A stretch of DNA of 64,000 nucleotides from a phage. Under the pieces are notes generated by a model, which searched no databases, had not been told where the DNA came from, and saw nothing but the letters and a program-made list of their open reading frames with translations. Location of the stretch: assembly GCA_033286805.1 (NCBI GenBank), contig GCA_033286805.1_4727.1, one strand, 5' to 3'. Both the position numbers and the translations under genes were made by a program. Below are positions 7,442-51,939 of this stretch, in pieces (position 1 is the first letter of the stretch; every line of letters starts with the position of its first letter).

Positions 7442-10400
7442 TACATAAACTCCTCGATGATGCAAATCCCATTAGCACCACGCCCACCAGGCTTAGCGGT
7501 TCCTGAGTAAGAGTTATCGTAAGCACCGCCACCACCCGAACCAGGCGCGAGGCCGTTATGGGCGGTGCCAACACCAGCGCGACCGCCACCGCCCCAATAT
7601 GACGCACCCCCACATCCACCGACGGCAAGAGTACCGGCTTGTCCATCGTTACCGTCTCCGCCCGGAATGCGTATATCCCCGGTAGTAGGTACGCCCCCAT
7701 AGCCACCGCCAGTGTTTGTGACAGTTGTTTTTCCTGCGCCTTGCCCGCCGGGAGCAGTTAGCAGGGATGCAAATTTACTATCCCCACCCCCGTTCCCAGA
7801 CGTCGCCCCAGAGCCACCGGAACCACCAGAACCAATTACAACAGAATAACTAGCAGCTGTTACCGTTATAACCGAAATTACTGTTCCGCCAGCGCCTCCC
7901 CCAGCGCCAAAAAACGTTTCGCTGTTGGAATAAGCCTGACAGCCACCGCCGCCACCGCCGCCACCGGTTATTGTTACTCTAATCCGTTTTGTTCCTTGTG
8001 TTGGGGTGTACGTCCCTGACGATGTGAAAACACGCATGTTCAGTAAACGTCCGACATATCCGCTAGAATCGGCTAAACCAAGATCTTTAGCTGCTAACGT
8101 GATATTAGCTGTACCGTCAAACGGTTTACCGTTAATCGTGCGCGCGGTCTGCAACTTCGTCGCCGTTGCTGCGTTTCCTGATGTGTTCTGGTTCCCCGCA
8201 GCGTTAACACCCGGCAGATTGATGTTCGCACTACCGTCGAAAGATACCCCACCAATGGTGCGGGCTGTTTTCAGTTTTGTCGCCGTGGCAGCATTACCGG
8301 TTGTGTCTTGGTTACCGGTGGTGTTTACCCCAGGCAGGTTGATATTTGCCGTTCCGTTAAATGAAACACCGCCAATCGTCCTTGCTGTTTGAAGCCTCGT
8401 CGCGGTAGCGGCGTTACCCGTCGTGTTCTGGTTTCCGGTTGTGTTCACACCAGGGATACTATCTTTCGAGGTGTAGATCTGTGCCCATTCTGACCAGTTC
8501 GAATCGGCCGCATCACGACGTGAACGTAGGTAAGCTGGAGCGTATGCACCTGAGGTACCTGACCACCCAATGAGGATTTCACCTTCACCGACCGATGAAG
8601 CCCCTTTAAGATGAATGACGTTACCATAAGCGGTGGGATACCCGTTATTGTACGCTTCATACATCTGGATGCCCGCATTGCTGCCCTGAGCCGTGTTAGC
8701 TAATGCCGTAACACGACCTTTGGAGGCGAGAGCGGTAATACTGAAGCTAATATCCTTAGTACCGTCAAAGGCGACCCCATTAATCTTCCGTGCTGTTTGG
8801 AGTTTCGTGGCGGTAGCCGCATTACCAGAGGTACTCTGATTACCTGCTTTGTTCACGCCAGGCAAATCAATGTTGGCTGTTCCATCAAAGGACACGCCCC
8901 CTATGGTTCTCGCTGTCTGGAGTTTTGTTGCTGAGCCAGCGTTTCCGGAAGTGCTTTGATTACCTGCCGCGTTGACACCTGGTAGGTTAATGCTAGCAGA
9001 GCCATCAAAAGAAACTCCACCGATCGTGATTGGTGTTTTCAATTTCGTGGCTGTCGCAGCATTACCCGTCGTATTCTGATTGCCAGCCGCATTAACGCCT
9101 GGTAATGCGATATCGGTCGTACCATCGAACGCGACACCACCGATTTTACGGGCAGTCTGTAGCTTGGTCGCTGTAGCCGCGTTGCCGCTGGTATTTTGCG
9201 TGCCCGCTTTATTTACGCCTGGTAAATCAATGTTCGCAGTACCATCAAAAGAAACACCCCCGATGGTTCTCGCGGTCTCAAGTTTGGTTGCGCTTCCTGC
9301 GTTTCCGCTGGTGTCTTGGTTTCCCGCTGCATCAACACCCGGTAGACTGATGCTGGCCGAACCATCGAAACTCACACCACCGATCGTAACAGCGGTTTTC
9401 AATTTCGTAGCGGTTGCAGCGTTCCCCGTGGTATTTTGGTTACCTGTCGCATTCACACCCGGTAATGCAATATCCGCTGTTCCGTCAAAGGCAACGCCAC
9501 CGATTCTACGTGCAGTTTGTAGCTTGGTTGCACTAGCAGCGTTACCGCTGGTATTCTGGGTGCCAGCTTTGTTAACACCAGGGAGATCGATGTTAGCAGA
9601 ACCATCGAAGCTAACGCCACCTATCGTTCTTGCAGTAGCAAGTTTAGCTGCTGTAGCAGCGGCGTTACCGACTTTTAACCATTCGCCCCATGGACCATCC
9701 TGGCCGTTCCATGATGCCGTTAAACTACGTACGTAAATATTGCCGGTACATACAGTGTAACGTTGCGTTCCACCGAATTGCCCGGTTGGGAGCACTTCAA
9801 TGTAACCTGCGGCATTTGCTTCAGGGAAATTGTGGGCGACGTCCGCGTTCGTTGATACTGGTTTAGACCAAATACCCACAGACGCTTCAACCGGACCGTA
9901 CGTATTCAGATTTGCGTCGGTGGGAAGTTGTCCTCGAAAACGCTGGAATTGTGTTGCCGATAACCCCAACGTTGTTTGCATGCTTTCAATGCTGGATTGC
10001 TGAAGTAACGTCCGTGCTGTCGACGTAATCACGGTAAGCGCAACTTTATTAACACCGGTGAAATACGGGAGTTTGTCTGCTGATGTCGCTAAACCTGAAA
10101 AGGCGGTCAGTAATGCGTTAAGGGGCTGCTTCCCAGCTAACGCATTTGTTACCGTCGTTGCGAAATTAGGATCACTTCCTATAGCTCGAGCCAGCTTATT
10201 AAGCGTATTTAGCGTCGCTGGTGACGAGTCGATCAGCGCCGTGATCGCACGCATCACAAATTCCGTGTTGGCTATCTGTCGACTGCTATTGTTAACTGCT
10301 GCGGTGGGCGCTGCTGGCGTACCAGTGAATACAGGGCTATTAAGATCCGCCTTGAGGGCGATGAGACGTTTAAGCGCTTCAACATCAACTTTCAGGTTTT

Positions 10401-11319
10401 CCCATCCGATGAGAGAACCACCACTGTTGGTATGATAACGGTTGTACCAGAAGTCACCGTTAACGCCAAAAAAGAATATACATTTCTCTTCGTTTTGTGG
10501 ACCGGAACTATTTCGTGATGAGTCGATATATTTGATTTCAATAAGACCGCTAAACACCACTCCTGGGATTATATTGTTGTCTCCAGCTGATTGTGATACT
10601 TGGTACATCCCCGGGGTTGCAGCTTTAACCCACGTTAAGAATTCTGTTACTCCAGCGTTACCGCTGAAACGCTTAACGTCGGTAAGTATCGCCCCATAAC
10701 CGAACATACCGGGTAAAGCAACTCGCCCATCGGTACGGTCACGAATATCTGTTGCAACAACAGGCAATTGTTTACGAACGGCATTAACCGCTTTAGGCGT
10801 GGCCGATTTTGTCTCGTCGTCGCTATCGGTTTCATTACTTAGAATAGTTAAACCGCGTGTAGTAGTAGTTGCATCAGGAAGAAATGCGTTATCCAACACC
10901 TTAAGCTGTACTGCACTCGTATTACTAACAACGACATGCACTTGACAGTTAAGAACGCTGGTTGCGCCTTCGGCAGGCGTAGGCTTATATCTTTCTGGTG
11001 CACTGCAGACGGCAATCAGAACACCTTGGTCGTCATACAGACCGATCTCACGTACCCAGAACCCACCTTGACCAGCAGGAATAATACCCTCAACGATAAT
11101 CCTAGTTGTGCTATCACCATCCGCATGGATATTAGAAACTTCCCCACGATAAACTTCGTGAACAAGCGCTGTTTGGCTGGCGGTAGGGGTTGGGATCGAG
11201 CCGTTACCATCACCAACGGCAAAGTGTGTGATTTTTAGTTTCTCACCGTCGGGAAGTAACGCAGCGGTGATACGTTCTGCTCCTTTATCGGTAACTACCG
11301 TTATATATGCTGTACTCAT
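7441..11319 (-). CDS. long tail fiber protein
   Basis: 1292 aa. N-terminal tail-fiber/collar-like domain (PTPTASQTALVHEVYRGE); eleven 39-aa tandem repeats; C-terminal polyglycine-rich region (GGGGGGGG ... GGGAGG). Confidence 0.75.
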   Translation of the reverse strand: MSTAYITVVTDKGAERITAALLPDGEKLKITHFAVGDGNGSIPTPTASQTALVHEVYRGEVSNIHADGDSTTRIIVEGIIPAGQGGFWVREIGLYDDQGVLIAVCSAPERYKPTPAEGATSVLNCQVHVVVSNTSAVQLKVLDNAFLPDATTTTRGLTILSNETDSDDETKSATPKAVNAVRKQLPVVATDIRDRTDGRVALPGMFGYGAILTDVKRFSGNAGVTEFLTWVKAATPGMYQVSQSAGDNNIIPGVVFSGLIEIKYIDSSRNSSGPQNEEKCIFFFGVNGDFWYNRYHTNSGGSLIGWENLKVDVEALKRLIALKADLNSPVFTGTPAAPTAAVNNSSRQIANTEFVMRAITALIDSSPATLNTLNKLARAIGSDPNFATTVTNALAGKQPLNALLTAFSGLATSADKLPYFTGVNKVALTVITSTARTLLQQSSIESMQTTLGLSATQFQRFRGQLPTDANLNTYGPVEASVGIWSKPVSTNADVAHNFPEANAAGYIEVLPTGQFGGTQRYTVCTGNIYVRSLTASWNGQDGPWGEWLKVGNAAATAAKLATARTIGGVSFDGSANIDLPGVNKAGTQNTSGNAASATKLQTARRIGGVAFDGTADIALPGVNATGNQNTTGNAATATKLKTAVTIGGVSFDGSASISLPGVDAAGNQDTSGNAGSATKLETARTIGGVSFDGTANIDLPGVNKAGTQNTSGNAATATKLQTARKIGGVAFDGTTDIALPGVNAAGNQNTTGNAATATKLKTPITIGGVSFDGSASINLPGVNAAGNQSTSGNAGSATKLQTARTIGGVSFDGTANIDLPGVNKAGNQSTSGNAATATKLQTARKINGVAFDGTKDISFSITALASKGRVTALANTAQGSNAGIQMYEAYNNGYPTAYGNVIHLKGASSVGEGEILIGWSGTSGAYAPAYLRSRRDAADSNWSEWAQIYTSKDSIPGVNTTGNQNTTGNAATATRLQTARTIGGVSFNGTANINLPGVNTTGNQDTTGNAATATKLKTARTIGGVSFDGSANINLPGVNAAGNQNTSGNAATATKLQTARTINGKPFDGTANITLAAKDLGLADSSGYVGRLLNMRVFTSSGTYTPTQGTKRIRVTITGGGGGGGGCQAYSNSETFFGAGGGAGGTVISVITVTAASYSVVIGSGGSGGSGATSGNGGGDSKFASLLTAPGGQGAGKTTVTNTGGGYGGVPTTGDIRIPGGDGNDGQAGTLAVGGCGGASYWGGGGRAGVGTAHNGLAPGSGGGGAYDNSYSGTAKPGGRGANGICIIEEFM
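8095..8454 (-). repeat. second block of the same 117-bp coding repeat, ~3 copies
   Basis: Fiber residues ~956-1075 repeat the same 39-aa unit after an intervening non-repeat domain. Confidence 0.6.
8740..9663 (-). repeat. in-frame tandem coding repeats, ~8 x 117 bp, inside the tail fiber gene
   Basis: Repeated unit encodes IGGVSFDGSANIDLPGVNKAGTQNTSGNAATATKLQTAR. The same periodicity produces spurious antisense ORFs at 9080..9736. Confidence 0.7.
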
Positions 11320-47050: not shown

Positions 47051-47512
47051 TTAATTCCGGTTTTGTTTCCGTATTGCACGGTTACGTTTACGTTCTTGGT
47101 CTTTGACTGTACCAAGAAACTTCTTTAATTCTGACGGTTCGAGTGTACCCTCACGTACCACACCGTTTTGTTCGATATGGTACGACCAATAACCAACTTC
47201 AGCCGTTAAGGATAACGTTGTCGGTTGTTCGTCAGGTAACGATCGGGGTGAGAAAATAAAGAGTAATTCAAAAGGCGTTTCTCGGCTGATGGTGGGACGG
47301 ATACTAACGTCAAGACCCTCCCATCGCTGAGGTTTAAATATTCCTCCAGCAGCAATGATTGTCTCCGAGCGTTGATCTACAAGCTCGGCTAATTCACGAT
47401 CATCGTTGAAATAAATATCGTGAAGAATATCTGTGTCGATAAAAAACCCGCGTTCCAAATCGTGACGAACAATGGAATTCTTCATTCTGCTGCCTTTGTT
47501 GTTTGTTTTCAT
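47051..47512 (-). CDS. hypothetical protein
   Basis: 153-aa ORF with basic C-terminus. Confidence 0.45.
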   Translation of the reverse strand: MKTNNKGSRMKNSIVRHDLERGFFIDTDILHDIYFNDDRELAELVDQRSETIIAAGGIFKPQRWEGLDVSIRPTISRETPFELLFIFSPRSLPDEQPTTLSLTAEVGYWSYHIEQNGVVREGTLEPSELKKFLGTVKDQERKRNRAIRKQNRN

Positions 47513-47561
47513 GTCCTATACGAACACGAAAAACCGTTAATTTTTACCATAACCACATGCG

Positions 47562-47837
47562 TTAAAATTCCACACCGCGACCCGTCATCGACGAAGGAAC
47601 CGCGCGATAATAGAAGTAGATGTAATGGTCACGATGGCTAAAATAGTTTTTGCAAGCATAGAACTCTCCAGATCCAATGAATGATTTAATACGTGTAACT
47701 TGAGGGTGTCGTGCGATTAACGCCTGTATGACGATTTCCATTTGGTGTGCGCTCAAACCAGGTCGAGCTGCAACATGATAATGAAGCTCCCTAAGAAATC
47801 GTTTCCAGGGATCAGGTTGTGTCGATGATCGAGACAT
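47562..47837 (-). CDS. hypothetical protein
   Basis: 91-aa ORF; ATG verified at 47835-47837 with AAGGAG upstream. Confidence 0.4.
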   Translation of the reverse strand: MSRSSTQPDPWKRFLRELHYHVAARPGLSAHQMEIVIQALIARHPQVTRIKSFIGSGEFYACKNYFSHRDHYIYFYYRAVPSSMTGRGVEF

Positions 47838-47874
47838 CTTTATCTCCTTAACGGTTGCTGGTAACGCGGCATAA

Positions 47875-47894
47875 ACCCTCCCCGAAGGGAGGGT
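47875..47894 (-). terminator. stem-loop terminator
   Basis: 8-bp stem ACCCTCCC / GGGAGGGT with CGAA loop; TTATGCC follows on the minus strand. Confidence 0.45.
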
Positions 47895-47903
47895 GATTAA
47901 CGA

Positions 47904-48461
47904 TTACTCCATCCATACTTCTTCGTCGTAATGATTTTCTATCGCATTACGCCAAAAACGCACGGTGTCCAAACTAATCGGCGCATAAAAATGCTGATCA
48001 ACGCCGACATTAAGTCCGTTGGCCTTCGCTAACATACAGCGATGAATATGACCGAATAGATTGAAGTAGCCTGGGTTTCTTTCGCTGGGCTTATGGCATA
48101 GCCAGTAGGATTCGTCATTGCTAATCGGCAACACCAACGGATGTTCATAAACCGCAGCAAACCCCATACCGAGCAATTTATCACGCCATGCTTCAAAGCT
48201 TAATCCTGTTGCTTTGTATGCGTCTTCGTCCCAATTCCCCAATACCAATTGAACCTGGATATCAGAACGAATGGCTTCCACGAACTCGAACTTACCCCAA
48301 TCACCTAAATGCCATAACACACTGTTCTTTGGAAGCTTGTTGATGGCTTTCAGCATATGCTGGTTCATATCGGCGACGCTTGCGAACGGACGGCGTGAAT
48401 ACGTCCATGTACGCTCGCTATCAAAATGGGTATCCGACATAAAGAAGATGGACGGGGTCAT
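47904..48461 (-). CDS. calcineurin-like metallophosphoesterase
   Basis: Ordered motifs FMSDTHFD, LWHLGDWG, LVLGNWDE and FGHIH match the D-x-H / GD / GN-[HW]-D/E / GH-x-H phosphoesterase signature. Confidence 0.65.
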   Translation of the reverse strand: MTPSIFFMSDTHFDSERTWTYSRRPFASVADMNQHMLKAINKLPKNSVLWHLGDWGKFEFVEAIRSDIQVQLVLGNWDEDAYKATGLSFEAWRDKLLGMGFAAVYEHPLVLPISNDESYWLCHKPSERNPGYFNLFGHIHRCMLAKANGLNVGVDQHFYAPISLDTVRFWRNAIENHYDEEVWME

Positions 48462-48940
48462 TGATCTAATTGCTCCAGAAATGCACGACCCGATTTACTT
48501 GCTTTTAAATGCTGTTCTGCGGAAGTAAGCAGAAGATCGGTTGGTGTATATGCAGCGCTACCTTTCCACGCTGTTTTCAGTTTACCCTTTTCGATACTGA
48601 ACTGAATCAGTTGTTGGGTACCGAAGTTAAGCGTGTTCGTCGCGGCGCTAAATACACCACCCATCATGCTGTAACCAAAGACTTTCACGTTTTCCGTGTA
48701 GAAGTCATTGTCGATCAATTTGTTCTGGAGCTCGAGTTGGTCGGACGGCAGCAATCCCCCATCGAAGACGCTTAAAATACCAGCCAGGCGATACATACTC
48801 ACCTTTCCTGAAACGCCCACCACGTAGTTGCCGTACACGGTTTCTTCCAGTTTAGCAACAACGGTGCGATCGTCGGAGGTTTTCATCGAAACCTCAATAC
48901 CATCACCAACTTCTGTTAACGTTAAATCAACGATACTCAT
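48458..48940 (-). CDS. hypothetical protein
   Basis: 160-aa ORF; 4-bp overlap with the downstream gene. Confidence 0.45.
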   Translation of the reverse strand: MSIVDLTLTEVGDGIEVSMKTSDDRTVVAKLEETVYGNYVVGVSGKVSMYRLAGILSVFDGGLLPSDQLELQNKLIDNDFYTENVKVFGYSMMGGVFSAATNTLNFGTQQLIQFSIEKGKLKTAWKGSAAYTPTDLLLTSAEQHLKASKSGRAFLEQLDQ

Positions 48941-48962
48941 TCATTATTCTCCGCTTTCATGT

Positions 48963-49649
48963 TTAACACATGATTTCACCATGTTTCTTTTCAACATACG
49001 TATAAACGTCATCCAAATAAGCAATGAGTTTATCACGATCCGCACAGAGCGATTTAATCATCGCAATCTCTTTCATATAAAGCTGCTGACCTAACGCCGG
49101 ATAGGTAATCCAAGCGTAGCCGTCAGGCGCAAATTTAGAAATAAGATAATCGGCGGTTTCCTGTAATGCGAACTCTTTGCTCATCTGGCCGTAACGATGT
49201 TCGATTGCACGGATACCAAAACGTTCGCTATCGAGACGACCCATATCCGCCAGACGAAGCACCTGAGAAGCAACAGAACTACGTGGACCAGAGTGCGAGG
49301 CACGATGTTCAGCAATAAGTACGCGTATCTCCTCGATGTCTTCCGGTGTGAAAATATCCTGCTCGTTACGAAGCAGGATAACCGATGCACGAATACCACC
49401 GATAAGGTGGTGGTATGTTCTGTTTTCGTGGCAAGCGATATCATGCATAAAAGCAGCGGTTAATAGACGACGACGTTCCGTGGGTCTGATGATCCCAACC
49501 ACATCAGCAAGTTCATTTGCCAGTTCAACAACAGCAAGCACATGTTCTTCTTGATGTGCAAGATCGTTCTTCCGAATATTTTCAATTACTTCAGCGCGAG
49601 TTTCCTGAGATAAGAAATTTAAACAATCCAACGAATATAAAGATTTCAT
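48963..49649 (-). CDS. HD-domain phosphohydrolase
   Basis: His ... His-Asp pattern (HQEEHVLAVVELANEL ... AAFMHDIACHE) typical of the HD superfamily; first gene of the minus-strand run. Confidence 0.55.
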   Translation of the reverse strand: MKSLYSLDCLNFLSQETRAEVIENIRKNDLAHQEEHVLAVVELANELADVVGIIRPTERRRLLTAAFMHDIACHENRTYHHLIGGIRASVILLRNEQDIFTPEDIEEIRVLIAEHRASHSGPRSSVASQVLRLADMGRLDSERFGIRAIEHRYGQMSKEFALQETADYLISKFAPDGYAWITYPALGQQLYMKEIAMIKSLCADRDKLIAYLDDVYTYVEKKHGEIMC

Positions 49650-49689
49650 CGCACGTACCTCTTTGAATCTATTAATAAATTTTCTTTAC

Positions 49690-49714
49690 TCACGTAAGTA
49701 ATATAGCCGTGAAA
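49690..49714. promoter_or_regulatory. conserved 25-bp intergenic motif, copy 2
   Basis: TCACGTAAGTAATATAGCCGTGAAA in the divergent region between minus gene start 49649 and plus gene start 49858; matches 21748..21772. Confidence 0.3.
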
Positions 49715-49793
49715 GGATTTGTGTTGGTCCGTTTCGATGCCCATCGTATTTTATGGATTGTCGAATGACGTCATTTTAAGGGACATCCCCGGC

Positions 49794-49829
49794 CTCCTCC
49801 CCAGGAAAGGTGTGGGGAGGAGTTTTTAT
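49794..49829 (+). terminator. terminator-like hairpin with T tract in the divergent region
   Basis: 9-bp stem CCTCCTCCC / GGGGAGGAG followed by TTTTTAT on the plus strand, ~30 nt upstream of the helicase ATG (49858). Confidence 0.45.
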
Positions 49830-49857
49830 CATACATTCTATTAAATCGAGCGCGATT

Positions 49858-51939
49858 ATGTTGGATAGAATCAATCGTTTAATGAACCGAATAACGGTTA
49901 AAAATCAGAGTAACAATACCGTGCATATCGGGGGTATCGATGCCTGGCGTCTTTCAGATGACATTCAGCGAATATGGGGTACCTCCCGATTTATGAAACA
50001 TATGTTTCGTAATTTCTCTTCTAGTGGACTCAGTCTCCACAATTTTTACCTTCCCGATTTCGTTTATATTCTCGAAACGATCATCGAAGCAAAGAATACC
50101 CGCAGTAATAAACGCATGCTGAAACACCTTATTGAGGTACTGCTGCAGGAAACCTGGTTGCAAAATACCACAATCGAGCAACCTGCAATCCTCGATAAAG
50201 CACGCATGAACAAAATGCTAACGCTCTCCCTGTTCGATTATCAAGATGAGTTTATCGACATCTATAACCGTAACGTACCTAAATATCGACTGAAAGGATA
50301 CGTGTGTGCGATGGGTGCGGGTGCTGGTAAAACAATCACCGCATTGGCTTTAAGCGCCGCAATGAACGTCGACGTATTTGTGGTCTGCTGTCCTAAGAAC
50401 ACCATGCGTTCAGCATGGCAATCCGATGTAAACAAAGCCATCGTTGACCCCGCAACAGAAACCGCATTCTGGTCAGATACAATGCCACCATCACAGCTGC
50501 AGAAAAGCGATAAGTATTATTTTCTGCATTACGAGTCGATGGGTTTATTAAACGATGTAATGATCAAGCATAAACGCACCGCGAAGCGAGTTCTTATTGT
50601 TGTTGACGAAAGCCATAACTTCAACGACAAGAACAGCCAACGTTCCCAACGACTGGTTGATCTCGTACAGACGATGCGTCAGACCATGAATGCTGATGTT
50701 CATGTCTTGTTTATGTCGGGTACGCCTGTTAAACAAATGGGTTCTGAGATGATCCCGTGTTTAGGTTGTATTGACCCAATGTTCCAAGGACAGGTGGTCG
50801 ATAGCTTCAAAGCAATTTACGGTTTAACCAGCAGTCGCGCTAACGATATCCTCAGACATCGTCTTGGGTTCATGATGCATGTCGTACCTAAAGAGGCTTA
50901 TCGTAAAACCCGTCCGGAAGTTCAGGACGTTTACGTGAAGCTCCCTAACGGTAGCGATTATACCATCTCAAGTATCCGCGACGACATGGCGATATTTGTA
51001 CGCGATCGGGCAAAGTATTACAAGGATAACTGGGGGCATTACAGAAAGATTTTTGATGACGCCTTGGACTACTATCGTAAGACTATTCGTACCGATGGTG
51101 AACGTAAAGAGCTATCTCGATACGAATCGATTGTTGCTCGTTTCCAGAAAGGTTACGACCCCGTCAGAGACAAAGAAGATGCGATGTTCTGCAACGCGTT
51201 TGAAAAACGTTCCATCATGCCGGTTCTTCCTTCCGATTTAAGGGTTGCTTTCAAAGACGCCAAGAGCGTCATCAAGTACGTTGGGTTGAAAATTCAGGGT
51301 GAAGCGTTGGCACGTGTTCTAGGTGCAGCCCGCATTCGGTGTCATGTCGACATGGTGGAGTACATCGACTTCGAAGGGTACATCAATAACGCCGAAGCCA
51401 AAGTGTTGATCTTCACGTCGTACGTTCAGGTGGTTGAACGCGTCGACAACATGCTTCGTGATGCGGGTTTCTTACCTGAACCCATTTACGGGAAGACCAA
51501 CAAGAACATCAACCAAATACTTGCTCGTCTACGCGATGATCCTGACAGCGGTCCCGCTATCGCAACATTTGATAGCTTAGCTGAAGGGGTTCCGATGCTG
51601 ATGTGTAATGTCGGCCTTTTCCTGAACAATCCATGGCGTTCATCCGATGAAATCCAAGCCATCAGCCGTCTCGATCGTGTAGGGCAAACGCAGCCCGTTC
51701 GGATTTATCGTTTCATGTTGGATACAGGAAGCGAGGGTAACGTTTCTACACGTAGCCACGAAATCATGGAGTTAAGTCGACAGCTTGTTGAAGAAATCAC
51801 GGGTGTCAAATATGTAGTGAACAAGCAAGACGATGTTAACTTGCAAGAAACGTTGGCGATGGAAGGATACGATCAATACGTTACCGTAAACACCACGGAA
51901 TACGATATTAAACCGCGACCTGCATTCTTGGAATGGTGA
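49858..51939 (+). CDS. SF2-type helicase/ATPase
   Basis: Walker A-like CAMGAGAGKTITAL and DExH-like box VLIVVDESHNF. Start set at ATG 49858 (MLDRINRL); the longer track ORF starts at a GTG inside the hairpin. Confidence 0.55.
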   Translation: MLDRINRLMNRITVKNQSNNTVHIGGIDAWRLSDDIQRIWGTSRFMKHMFRNFSSSGLSLHNFYLPDFVYILETIIEAKNTRSNKRMLKHLIEVLLQETWLQNTTIEQPAILDKARMNKMLTLSLFDYQDEFIDIYNRNVPKYRLKGYVCAMGAGAGKTITALALSAAMNVDVFVVCCPKNTMRSAWQSDVNKAIVDPATETAFWSDTMPPSQLQKSDKYYFLHYESMGLLNDVMIKHKRTAKRVLIVVDESHNFNDKNSQRSQRLVDLVQTMRQTMNADVHVLFMSGTPVKQMGSEMIPCLGCIDPMFQGQVVDSFKAIYGLTSSRANDILRHRLGFMMHVVPKEAYRKTRPEVQDVYVKLPNGSDYTISSIRDDMAIFVRDRAKYYKDNWGHYRKIFDDALDYYRKTIRTDGERKELSRYESIVARFQKGYDPVRDKEDAMFCNAFEKRSIMPVLPSDLRVAFKDAKSVIKYVGLKIQGEALARVLGAARIRCHVDMVEYIDFEGYINNAEAKVLIFTSYVQVVERVDNMLRDAGFLPEPIYGKTNKNINQILARLRDDPDSGPAIATFDSLAEGVPMLMCNVGLFLNNPWRSSDEIQAISRLDRVGQTQPVRIYRFMLDTGSEGNVSTRSHEIMELSRQLVEEITGVKYVVNKQDDVNLQETLAMEGYDQYVTVNTTEYDIKPRPAFLEW

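Follow-up and report, generated by a model that had tools for sequence, protein, structure and literature searches.

Genes for a metallophosphoesterase (MPE) and an HD-domain phosphohydrolase lie close together at positions 47904-49649 of a 64,000-nucleotide stretch of phage DNA (GenBank assembly GCA_033286805.1, contig GCA_033286805.1_4727.1; the whole stretch is hereafter called the window). The locus raises the question of whether these two metal-dependent enzymes work together as one system, and of what they hydrolyze. A sequence-only reading of the window had proposed both enzymes as near neighbors at the start of a minus-strand run, and this description was confirmed: open reading frames (ORFs) were present at exactly these coordinates, their products matched Pfam and PHROG families and carried the full metal-binding motifs, and the HD gene was the first of the run, with one gene lying between it and the MPE gene. 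The best explanation, to which we assign a probability of about 60%, is that the phage is a chimallivirus of the Goslar type whose two enzymes are accessory and independent of each other, sharing a short transcription unit without forming a two-enzyme system. This reading is based on the gene structure, the protein families with their intact motifs, the purifying selection and the absence of any conserved linkage; what the enzymes act on and what they do for the phage we infer.

Gene organization and relationship to phage Goslar

The region was 96.6% identical at the DNA level to Escherichia phage vB_EcoM_Goslar (NC_048170, MK327938), a 237-kb nucleus-forming jumbo phage of E. coli belonging to the chimalliviruses. 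The HD gene, the gene following it and the MPE gene corresponded to Goslar gp159, gp158 and gp157, respectively, with the order, spacing and strand all as in Goslar (Table 1), and the encoded proteins were 97.8%, 97.5% and 98.9% identical to their Goslar counterparts. The HD protein differed by five changes, and the MPE by P4S and M74L. The HD gene is divergent from a plus-strand SNF2 helicase gene and is followed after a gap of 22 nt by gp158, the one gene between the two hydrolases, which in turn overlaps the MPE gene by 4 nt (ATGA), the gp158 stop codon lying on the MPE start codon. The ratios of nonsynonymous to synonymous substitution rates (dN/dS) against Goslar were 0.10 for HD, 0.11 for gp158 and 0.024 for MPE, so that each of them is a real gene on which purifying selection acts.

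The finding at the level of domains is already public in the Goslar annotation. Both the GenBank and the RefSeq records label gp159 as 'HD domain-containing protein', gp158 as 'hypothetical protein' and gp157 as 'metallophosphoesterase family protein' (COG4186). No mention of gp157 or gp159 was found in the Goslar literature outside Table S4 of a 2026 preprint on the virion (bioRxiv 10.64898/2026.04.21.720040), and the Goslar core-genome paper discusses neither of them. A 98%-identical MPE is filed in NCBI under 'Escherichia coli' on a contig of 24.7 kb, which is presumably Goslar-like phage DNA within a bacterial assembly.

Linkage of the two hydrolase genes across phages

Relatives of the HD protein were found in 94 phage records, nearly all of them jumbo phages of 210-295 kb with Erwinia, Aeromonas, Vibrio, Klebsiella, Serratia and others as hosts, at approximately 30-34% identity. 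The 133 records containing MPE relatives were taxonomically scattered and included Yoloswag-type Erwinia phages (42-47% identity) as well as phages of Enterococcus, Bacillus, Streptomyces, Sinorhizobium and Flavobacterium. For the analysis of linkage, hidden Markov models (HMMs) of both families were used to scan the six-frame ORFs around each locus, the HD loci being taken from annotated phage records. An HD gene of this family was detected at none of the 36 MPE loci outside Goslar (within 10 kb on either side), nor was an MPE gene of this family at any of the 12 non-Goslar HD loci (within 3.5 to 10 kb on either side). The link between the two enzymes implied by the earlier reading was thus not supported: HD and MPE are not a conserved pair, and their adjacency is limited to the Goslar lineage.

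These results bear on the view that the three genes belong to one functional module. The MPE and the HD protein would then act sequentially on a single substrate, for example with the former opening a cyclic phosphate and the latter cleaving the phosphate off, and gp158 would be their partner. The compact arrangement on one strand (22-nt gap, 4-nt overlap), flanked by hairpins and with no internal terminator, would suit such a module. Moreover, one HD gene and one MPE gene randomly placed among approximately 247 genes would lie within two gene positions of each other with a chance of only about 1.6%. However, this nominally unusual closeness was not replicated in the other genomes examined, the arrangement being found only in the Goslar lineage; gp158 is an orphan, and the abundances of HD, gp158 and MPE reported for virions stand at approximately 1:900:75. 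The position of the HD gene in other chimalliviruses is, in addition, both different and conserved. A module of this kind is therefore highly improbable.

In most chimalliviruses, the HD gene ends a block of genes after the head-maturation protease, directly before the genes for the tail tube and sheath. The corresponding slot in Goslar (NC_048170 200278-203839; L057 5278-8839) is filled by gp213-216, and the Goslar lineage thus appears to have moved its HD gene elsewhere. The neighborhood is best explained by accessory genes gathering in a variable region of the genome, and the two hydrolases would share a transcription unit through lineage-specific gene placement. As it stands, the juxtaposition has little significance, because both genes have been annotated in Goslar, large lytic phages commonly carry members of either family, and the proximity is an accident of one lineage in an accessory region. 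In Salmonella phage SA002, a second 'putative phosphohydrolase' is encoded near the HD gene; in Pfam, it matched neither the MPE nor the HD families.

Table 1. Coordinates of the genes, hairpins and comparison loci (L numbers denote loci in other phages; other positions are those of the window)
Feature	Position	Strand	Details
HD-domain phosphohydrolase gene, Goslar gp159 ortholog	48963-49649	minus	228 aa; predicted YpgQ/YedJ type
Orphan gene, Goslar gp158 ortholog	48458-48940	minus	160 aa
Small binuclear metallophosphoesterase (MPE) gene, Goslar gp157 ortholog	47904-48461	minus	185 aa; aq_1665/COG4186/D29 Gp66 family
GC-rich hairpin, likely terminator	47875-47894	minus	ACCCUCCC-UUCG-GGGAGGGU, 8-bp stem, then UUUAU; 10 nt after MPE stop
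Hairpin in divergent intergenic region upstream of HD gene	49794-49818	plus	plus-strand terminator in the Goslar annotation (Goslar 142891-142915)
Acb1-like genes near Yoloswag-type MPE genes	L005 11617-12267; L008 12540-13163		Pfam Acb1, E 2.6e-15 and 8e-12
DHFR-HD-thymidylate synthase loci in Vibrio phages	L041 9393-11657; L050 2900-4867; L046 3393-5091		

Transcription unit and regulatory signals

The three minus-strand genes were bounded by a hairpin on each side. Folding of the RNA of 47860-47910, containing the hairpin downstream of the MPE gene, gave -19.7 kcal/mol (z -2.4). This hairpin is absent from the Goslar record and was missed by a consensus terminator scan; it is likely the terminator ending the three-gene unit. 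The hairpin upstream of the HD gene, bounding the unit on its 5' side, folded with -22.4 kcal/mol (z -1.4). The mechanically called ORF of the SNF2/ResIII helicase (49810-51939, plus strand) begins with a GTG at 49810 inside this upstream hairpin, and the helicase start annotated in Goslar corresponds to position 49856 of the window.

The scan detected no terminator-like structure between the three minus-strand genes, and HD, gp158 and MPE are probably cotranscribed; a further promoter inside the unit may serve gp158-gp157. A sigma-70 promoter scan returned nothing, although such a scan is not applicable to phages with their own RNA polymerases. The motif TATATTAC, which we take to be the early-promoter consensus of PhiKZ, occurs at 49698-49705 on the minus strand, 47 nt upstream of the HD start. 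It was found twice in 64 kb against 2.7 occurrences expected, and because this count is at the level of chance the site was not called a promoter. An Rfam scan of 47400-50100 detected no RNA family.

The HD protein as a putative nucleotide-pool enzyme

The HD protein matched the Pfam family HD (PF01966; E 4.2e-8, 33.9 bits against a cut-off of 22) and phrog_3921 (5e-30), the latter being listed with 'unknown function'. Its HD motifs, H36, H69-D70 and D135, were accompanied by H32, R77, H80 and H115-R116-S118, and all ten residues (H32, H36, H69, D70, R77, H80, H115, R116, S118 and D135) were invariant in an alignment of 60 family members. The AlphaFold model was all-helical with a predicted local distance difference test score (pLDDT) of 96.4. 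A word-indexed homolog search retrieved one near-identical relative, and seven proteins when a profile was applied; an exhaustive HMMER search yielded 331 cluster representatives. Single-sequence searches of the HD protein and of the MPE against PDB sequences gave nothing, and family profiles were needed here. The HD family profile detected 2pq7, an HD hydrolase from structural genomics (6.6e-16), YedJ of E. coli (6.5e-13), 3djb (1.2e-6) and YpgQ of Bacillus subtilis (2.5e-4), along with Lin1889, SE1688 and the HD domain of exopolyphosphatases.

In YpgQ, the metal ion is bound by H29, H58, D59 and D124, and H25, R136, F140 and H158 line the active site (review, PMC8177086). When the residues were mapped by their spacing and by the 2pq7 and YedJ alignments, without a direct alignment to YpgQ, the phage family matched all eight of these positions (F140 as Y or F). 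The spacing of the active-site residues was 4/33/65/12/4/21 in the phage family and 4/29/65/12/4/22 in YpgQ. The protein of the window was identical to YpgQ at six of the eight positions, the exceptions being the aromatic residue and the last His. Residue 151, corresponding to F140 of YpgQ, is His (Tyr/Phe in 51 of 60 relatives), and residue 168, corresponding to H158, is Tyr (His in 57 of 60). This exchange resembles a reciprocal swap in the substrate pocket, and the specificity of the HD protein in the Goslar lineage could thus differ from that of its relatives.

YpgQ and YedJ have been described as Mn2+-dependent (d)NTP pyrophosphohydrolases (PMC6692503), and PenF from Streptomyces, which belongs to their clade, as a nucleoside 5'-monophosphatase (PMC11592144). 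The substrate residues Arg, His and Lys of PenF have counterparts in the phage HD protein. Although the identity to YpgQ, YedJ, 2pq7 and PenF was only 15-20%, remote homology places the HD protein in the YpgQ/YedJ clade of (d)NTP pyrophosphohydrolases. Unlike YpgQ and YedJ, the phage clade has approximately 40 extra C-terminal residues, resulting in better alignment to the catalytic domains of class-I phosphodiesterases, and also the invariant R77, H80 and H115-R116-x-S118. The HD protein did not qualify as a class-I 3',5'-cyclic nucleotide phosphodiesterase (PDEase_I, PF00233), which has a 16-helix domain of about 320 aa, nor as a c-di-GMP phosphodiesterase of the HD-GYP type, which is defined by an HD domain plus the GYP signature. 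Six of the 60 family members matched Pfam PF24391 (HD-CE) and four matched domain III of Ppx-GppA, and the protein of the window matched neither.

The genomic context of the relatives pointed in the same direction as the YpgQ-type active site. In the Vibrio jumbo phages pTD1, phiKT1028 and Aphrodite1, the HD gene was found between the genes for dihydrofolate reductase (DHFR) and thymidylate synthase (ThyA), in DHFR-HD-ThyA clusters with 4-nt overlaps or 1-nt gaps (Table 1); in phiKT1028, a homing endonuclease interrupts the thymidylate synthase gene. The active site and this context together argue for a role in the nucleotide pool, and the HD protein is most likely a (d)NTP pyrophosphohydrolase. 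The annotation of Goslar includes ThyA (thymidylate synthase) and Tmk (thymidylate kinase), and no dUTPase, dCMP deaminase or ribonucleotide reductase is annotated in this phage. In the proposed mechanism, gp159, a standalone HD-domain enzyme, would use a Mn2+ (or similar) ion bound by its His and Asp residues to hydrolyze (deoxy)nucleoside phosphates, our best guess for the reaction being dNTP -> dNMP + PPi (pyrophosphate). Such an activity would purge or redirect the pool of deoxynucleotides and might supply the thymidylate synthase and kinase of the phage, with gp159 probably acting in the cytoplasm without being packaged. The analysis adds a placement of phrog_3921, the HD family of chimalliviruses, in the YpgQ/YedJ clade with a thymidylate-synthesis context in Vibrio jumbo phages. 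This placement suggests a possible route to dUMP, or to a clean dNTP pool, in phages that have ThyA and lack dUTPase and dCMP deaminase.

The MPE as a member of the D29 Gp66 family

The MPE scored 34 bits (E 3.7e-8) with Pfam Metallophos_2, for which the cut-off is 27, and also matched phrog_547, labeled 'phosphoesterase' (1e-30). The motifs D10-x-H12, G53-D54, G75-N76, H123 and G137-H138-x-H140 were complete and were invariant or nearly so in 81 sequences, the His of motif III being replaced by W in the protein of the window (Y in the family). The AlphaFold model had a pLDDT of 97.2. Full-length homology of the MPE family was found both to aq_1665 of Aquifex aeolicus (PDB 1xm7, COG4186) and to Gp66 of mycobacteriophage D29, a 49-kb siphovirus of mycobacteria; for Gp66, the hhalign probability was 98.4% with an E-value of 1e-14. 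Gp66 is similar in size to the MPE (199 vs 185 aa) and shares the metal-binding motifs and an aligned C-terminal 'VG(V/L)D' motif at approximately 23% identity. It keeps the canonical GNHD motif III, whereas the MPE family has GN(Y/W)(E/D).

The aq_1665 protein comes from structural genomics, has no assigned function and gives no functional information, and D29 Gp66 is the only characterized member of the aq_1665/COG4186 family. According to Dutta et al. (2014, as cited in PMC12287305), it is a phosphodiesterase of 2',3'-cyclic nucleotides, an activity reported for this member only. By analogy, gp157 would most likely be a phosphodiesterase acting on 2',3'-cyclic phosphates of nucleotides or of RNA ends. 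The earlier reading had suggested the processing of nucleotide pools for such enzymes in general; this was supported for the HD protein by its YpgQ-type site and the DHFR-HD-ThyA context, and the MPE was placed more firmly, in the family of D29 Gp66. The earlier reading also held that sequence cannot reveal the substrate. This was too pessimistic, as the range can be narrowed by remote homology, to the mononucleotide hydrolases YpgQ, YedJ and PenF for the HD protein and to the Gp66 family for the MPE, within which the exact substrates are candidates only.

An activity on RNA ends would fit a role in RNA end-healing, in which the MPE makes the 2',3'-cyclic phosphate ends left by host anticodon nucleases or HEPN RNases ligatable, as analogues such as the phosphoesterase domain of bacterial Pnkp and, in vitro, lambda phosphatase do. 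On the other hand, the whole Goslar annotation contains neither an RNA ligase nor a polynucleotide kinase, and we found no report of a family member that acts on the ends of RNA and not just on free nucleotides. A Pfam census of the genes located up to 3 kb from the MPE gene (142 genes at 22 non-redundant viral loci) gave no recurrent partner, including any for RNA repair. End-healing is thus an unlikely role for the MPE.

Still more doubtful is a nuclease role, in which the MPE would attack host or damaged DNA in the manner of Gp48 of mycobacteriophage A10ZJ24 or the ligase-associated nuclease PdeM (TIGR04123). The host-DNA-degrading A10ZJ24 Gp48 has been described as highly similar to gp47 of Bxb1, a recombination directionality factor; both are MPEs of cluster-A mycobacteriophages. 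Bxb1 gp47, tried as a relative, was not detectably related to the MPE family (hhalign probability 0.6%), and A10ZJ24 Gp48 is therefore probably not an MPE relative either. The match to PdeM covered only 30 residues and, at 19.8 bits, fell short of the cut-off of 150, and the nuclease fold scored no better than LpxH or lambda phosphatase.

Two further features were observed at MPE loci. In the Yoloswag-type Erwinia jumbo phages, an Acb1-like 2H phosphoesterase, annotated as hypothetical, is encoded three to four genes downstream of the MPE gene (Table 1); among the 22 non-redundant loci, this neighbor was confined to one lineage. In contigs of Enterococcus-type phages (L019, L022-L025 and L027, at approximately 10000-11200), two MPE-family paralogs occur in tandem, followed in L022 and L019 by a third MPE of the Metallophos type.

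Counter-defense as an alternative role

The sequence-only reading had also raised the degradation of second messengers of host immunity. In this case, the HD protein, the MPE or both would destroy the cyclic di- or oligonucleotides of the cyclic-oligonucleotide-based anti-phage signaling system (CBASS) or type III CRISPR, or the cCMP and cUMP of Pycsar. The phage enzymes Acb1 and Apyc1, which degrade such signals, resemble the MPE and the HD protein in being small phage phosphodiesterase-type enzymes acting on nucleotides, but they differ in fold and family, Acb1 having the 2H phosphoesterase fold and Apyc1 the metallo-beta-lactamase fold. Neither the HD protein nor the MPE matched Pfam Acb1 or any other anti-defense family. 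PADLOC returned nothing for the MPE and a marginal match to the Cas10 HD region (E 0.017) for the HD protein.

The HD gene of Vibrio phages is embedded among genes for thymidylate synthesis, the Acb1 neighborhood of the MPE is the property of a single lineage, and the conservation of the HD protein across chimalliviruses of different hosts fits housekeeping better than an arms-race gene. In the counter-defense literature that could be searched, no mention of either gene was found. The proposal thus gained no positive support, and it is improbable that either enzyme serves to destroy immune signals; a nucleotide-pool enzyme and a separate member of the Gp66 family account better for the observations.

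Virion proteomics and the orphan gp158

The protein encoded between the two hydrolases was examined together with published mass spectrometry data. Purified Goslar virions have been analyzed by label-free quantitative liquid chromatography-tandem mass spectrometry (Table S4 of bioRxiv 10.64898/2026.04.21.720040), in which the gene numbering agrees with the Goslar records compared. In this data set, gp158 was present at approximately 926 copies per virion (19 peptides, 62% coverage) and was among the most abundant proteins unplaced in the cryo-electron microscopy model. The MPE was quantified at approximately 75 copies per virion (14 peptides, 63% coverage) and the HD protein at approximately 1.1 copies (2 peptides). 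In the text of the preprint, gp158 appears only in a group of ten abundant proteins whose function is unknown, and neither the MPE nor the HD protein is mentioned.

The same table contains proteins that do not belong to the virion, namely (approximate copy numbers), PhuZ (170), chimallin (126), ChmC (78), the exoribonuclease gp147 (59) and thymidylate synthase (20). As these proteins were detected at levels comparable to that of the MPE, the virion preparation carries abundant intracellular phage proteins, and entries of middle abundance are not to be taken as packaged because non-virion proteins are equally present. Well above this background, gp158 is an abundant virion-associated protein. 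The abundance of the MPE was not above background, and its packaging, which may occur, is a lead and not a result. These data, undiscussed in this respect by their authors, raise the possibility that Goslar particles carry a phosphodiesterase beside the abundant orphan gp158, to which gp157 would be translationally coupled.

If the lead were followed to its end, gp157 and the coupled gp158 would be packaged and delivered with the DNA as a pre-loaded enzymatic counter-defense in a nucleus-forming phage. We regard this as a long shot. Were it true, a phosphodiesterase would be on hand in the early vesicle or the cytoplasm before phage gene expression, and RNA damage in the form of 2',3'-cyclic phosphates, or a cyclic-nucleotide alarm signal, would be removed at the onset of infection.

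The gp158 protein itself matched no family in Pfam, PHROG or NCBIfam, and tblastn found homologs only in Goslar-type phages. Genes of about 160 aa that follow HD in other chimalliviruses, or MPE in Yoloswag, were considered as homologs of gp158 and proved to be unrelated. The proteins encoded downstream of the HD gene in RisingSun, Miami, ACP1 and OBP share an N-terminal hydrophobic segment that gp158 does not have. Another very abundant protein in Table S4 of the preprint was gp214, encoded in the usual slot of the HD gene, with approximately 865 copies per virion.

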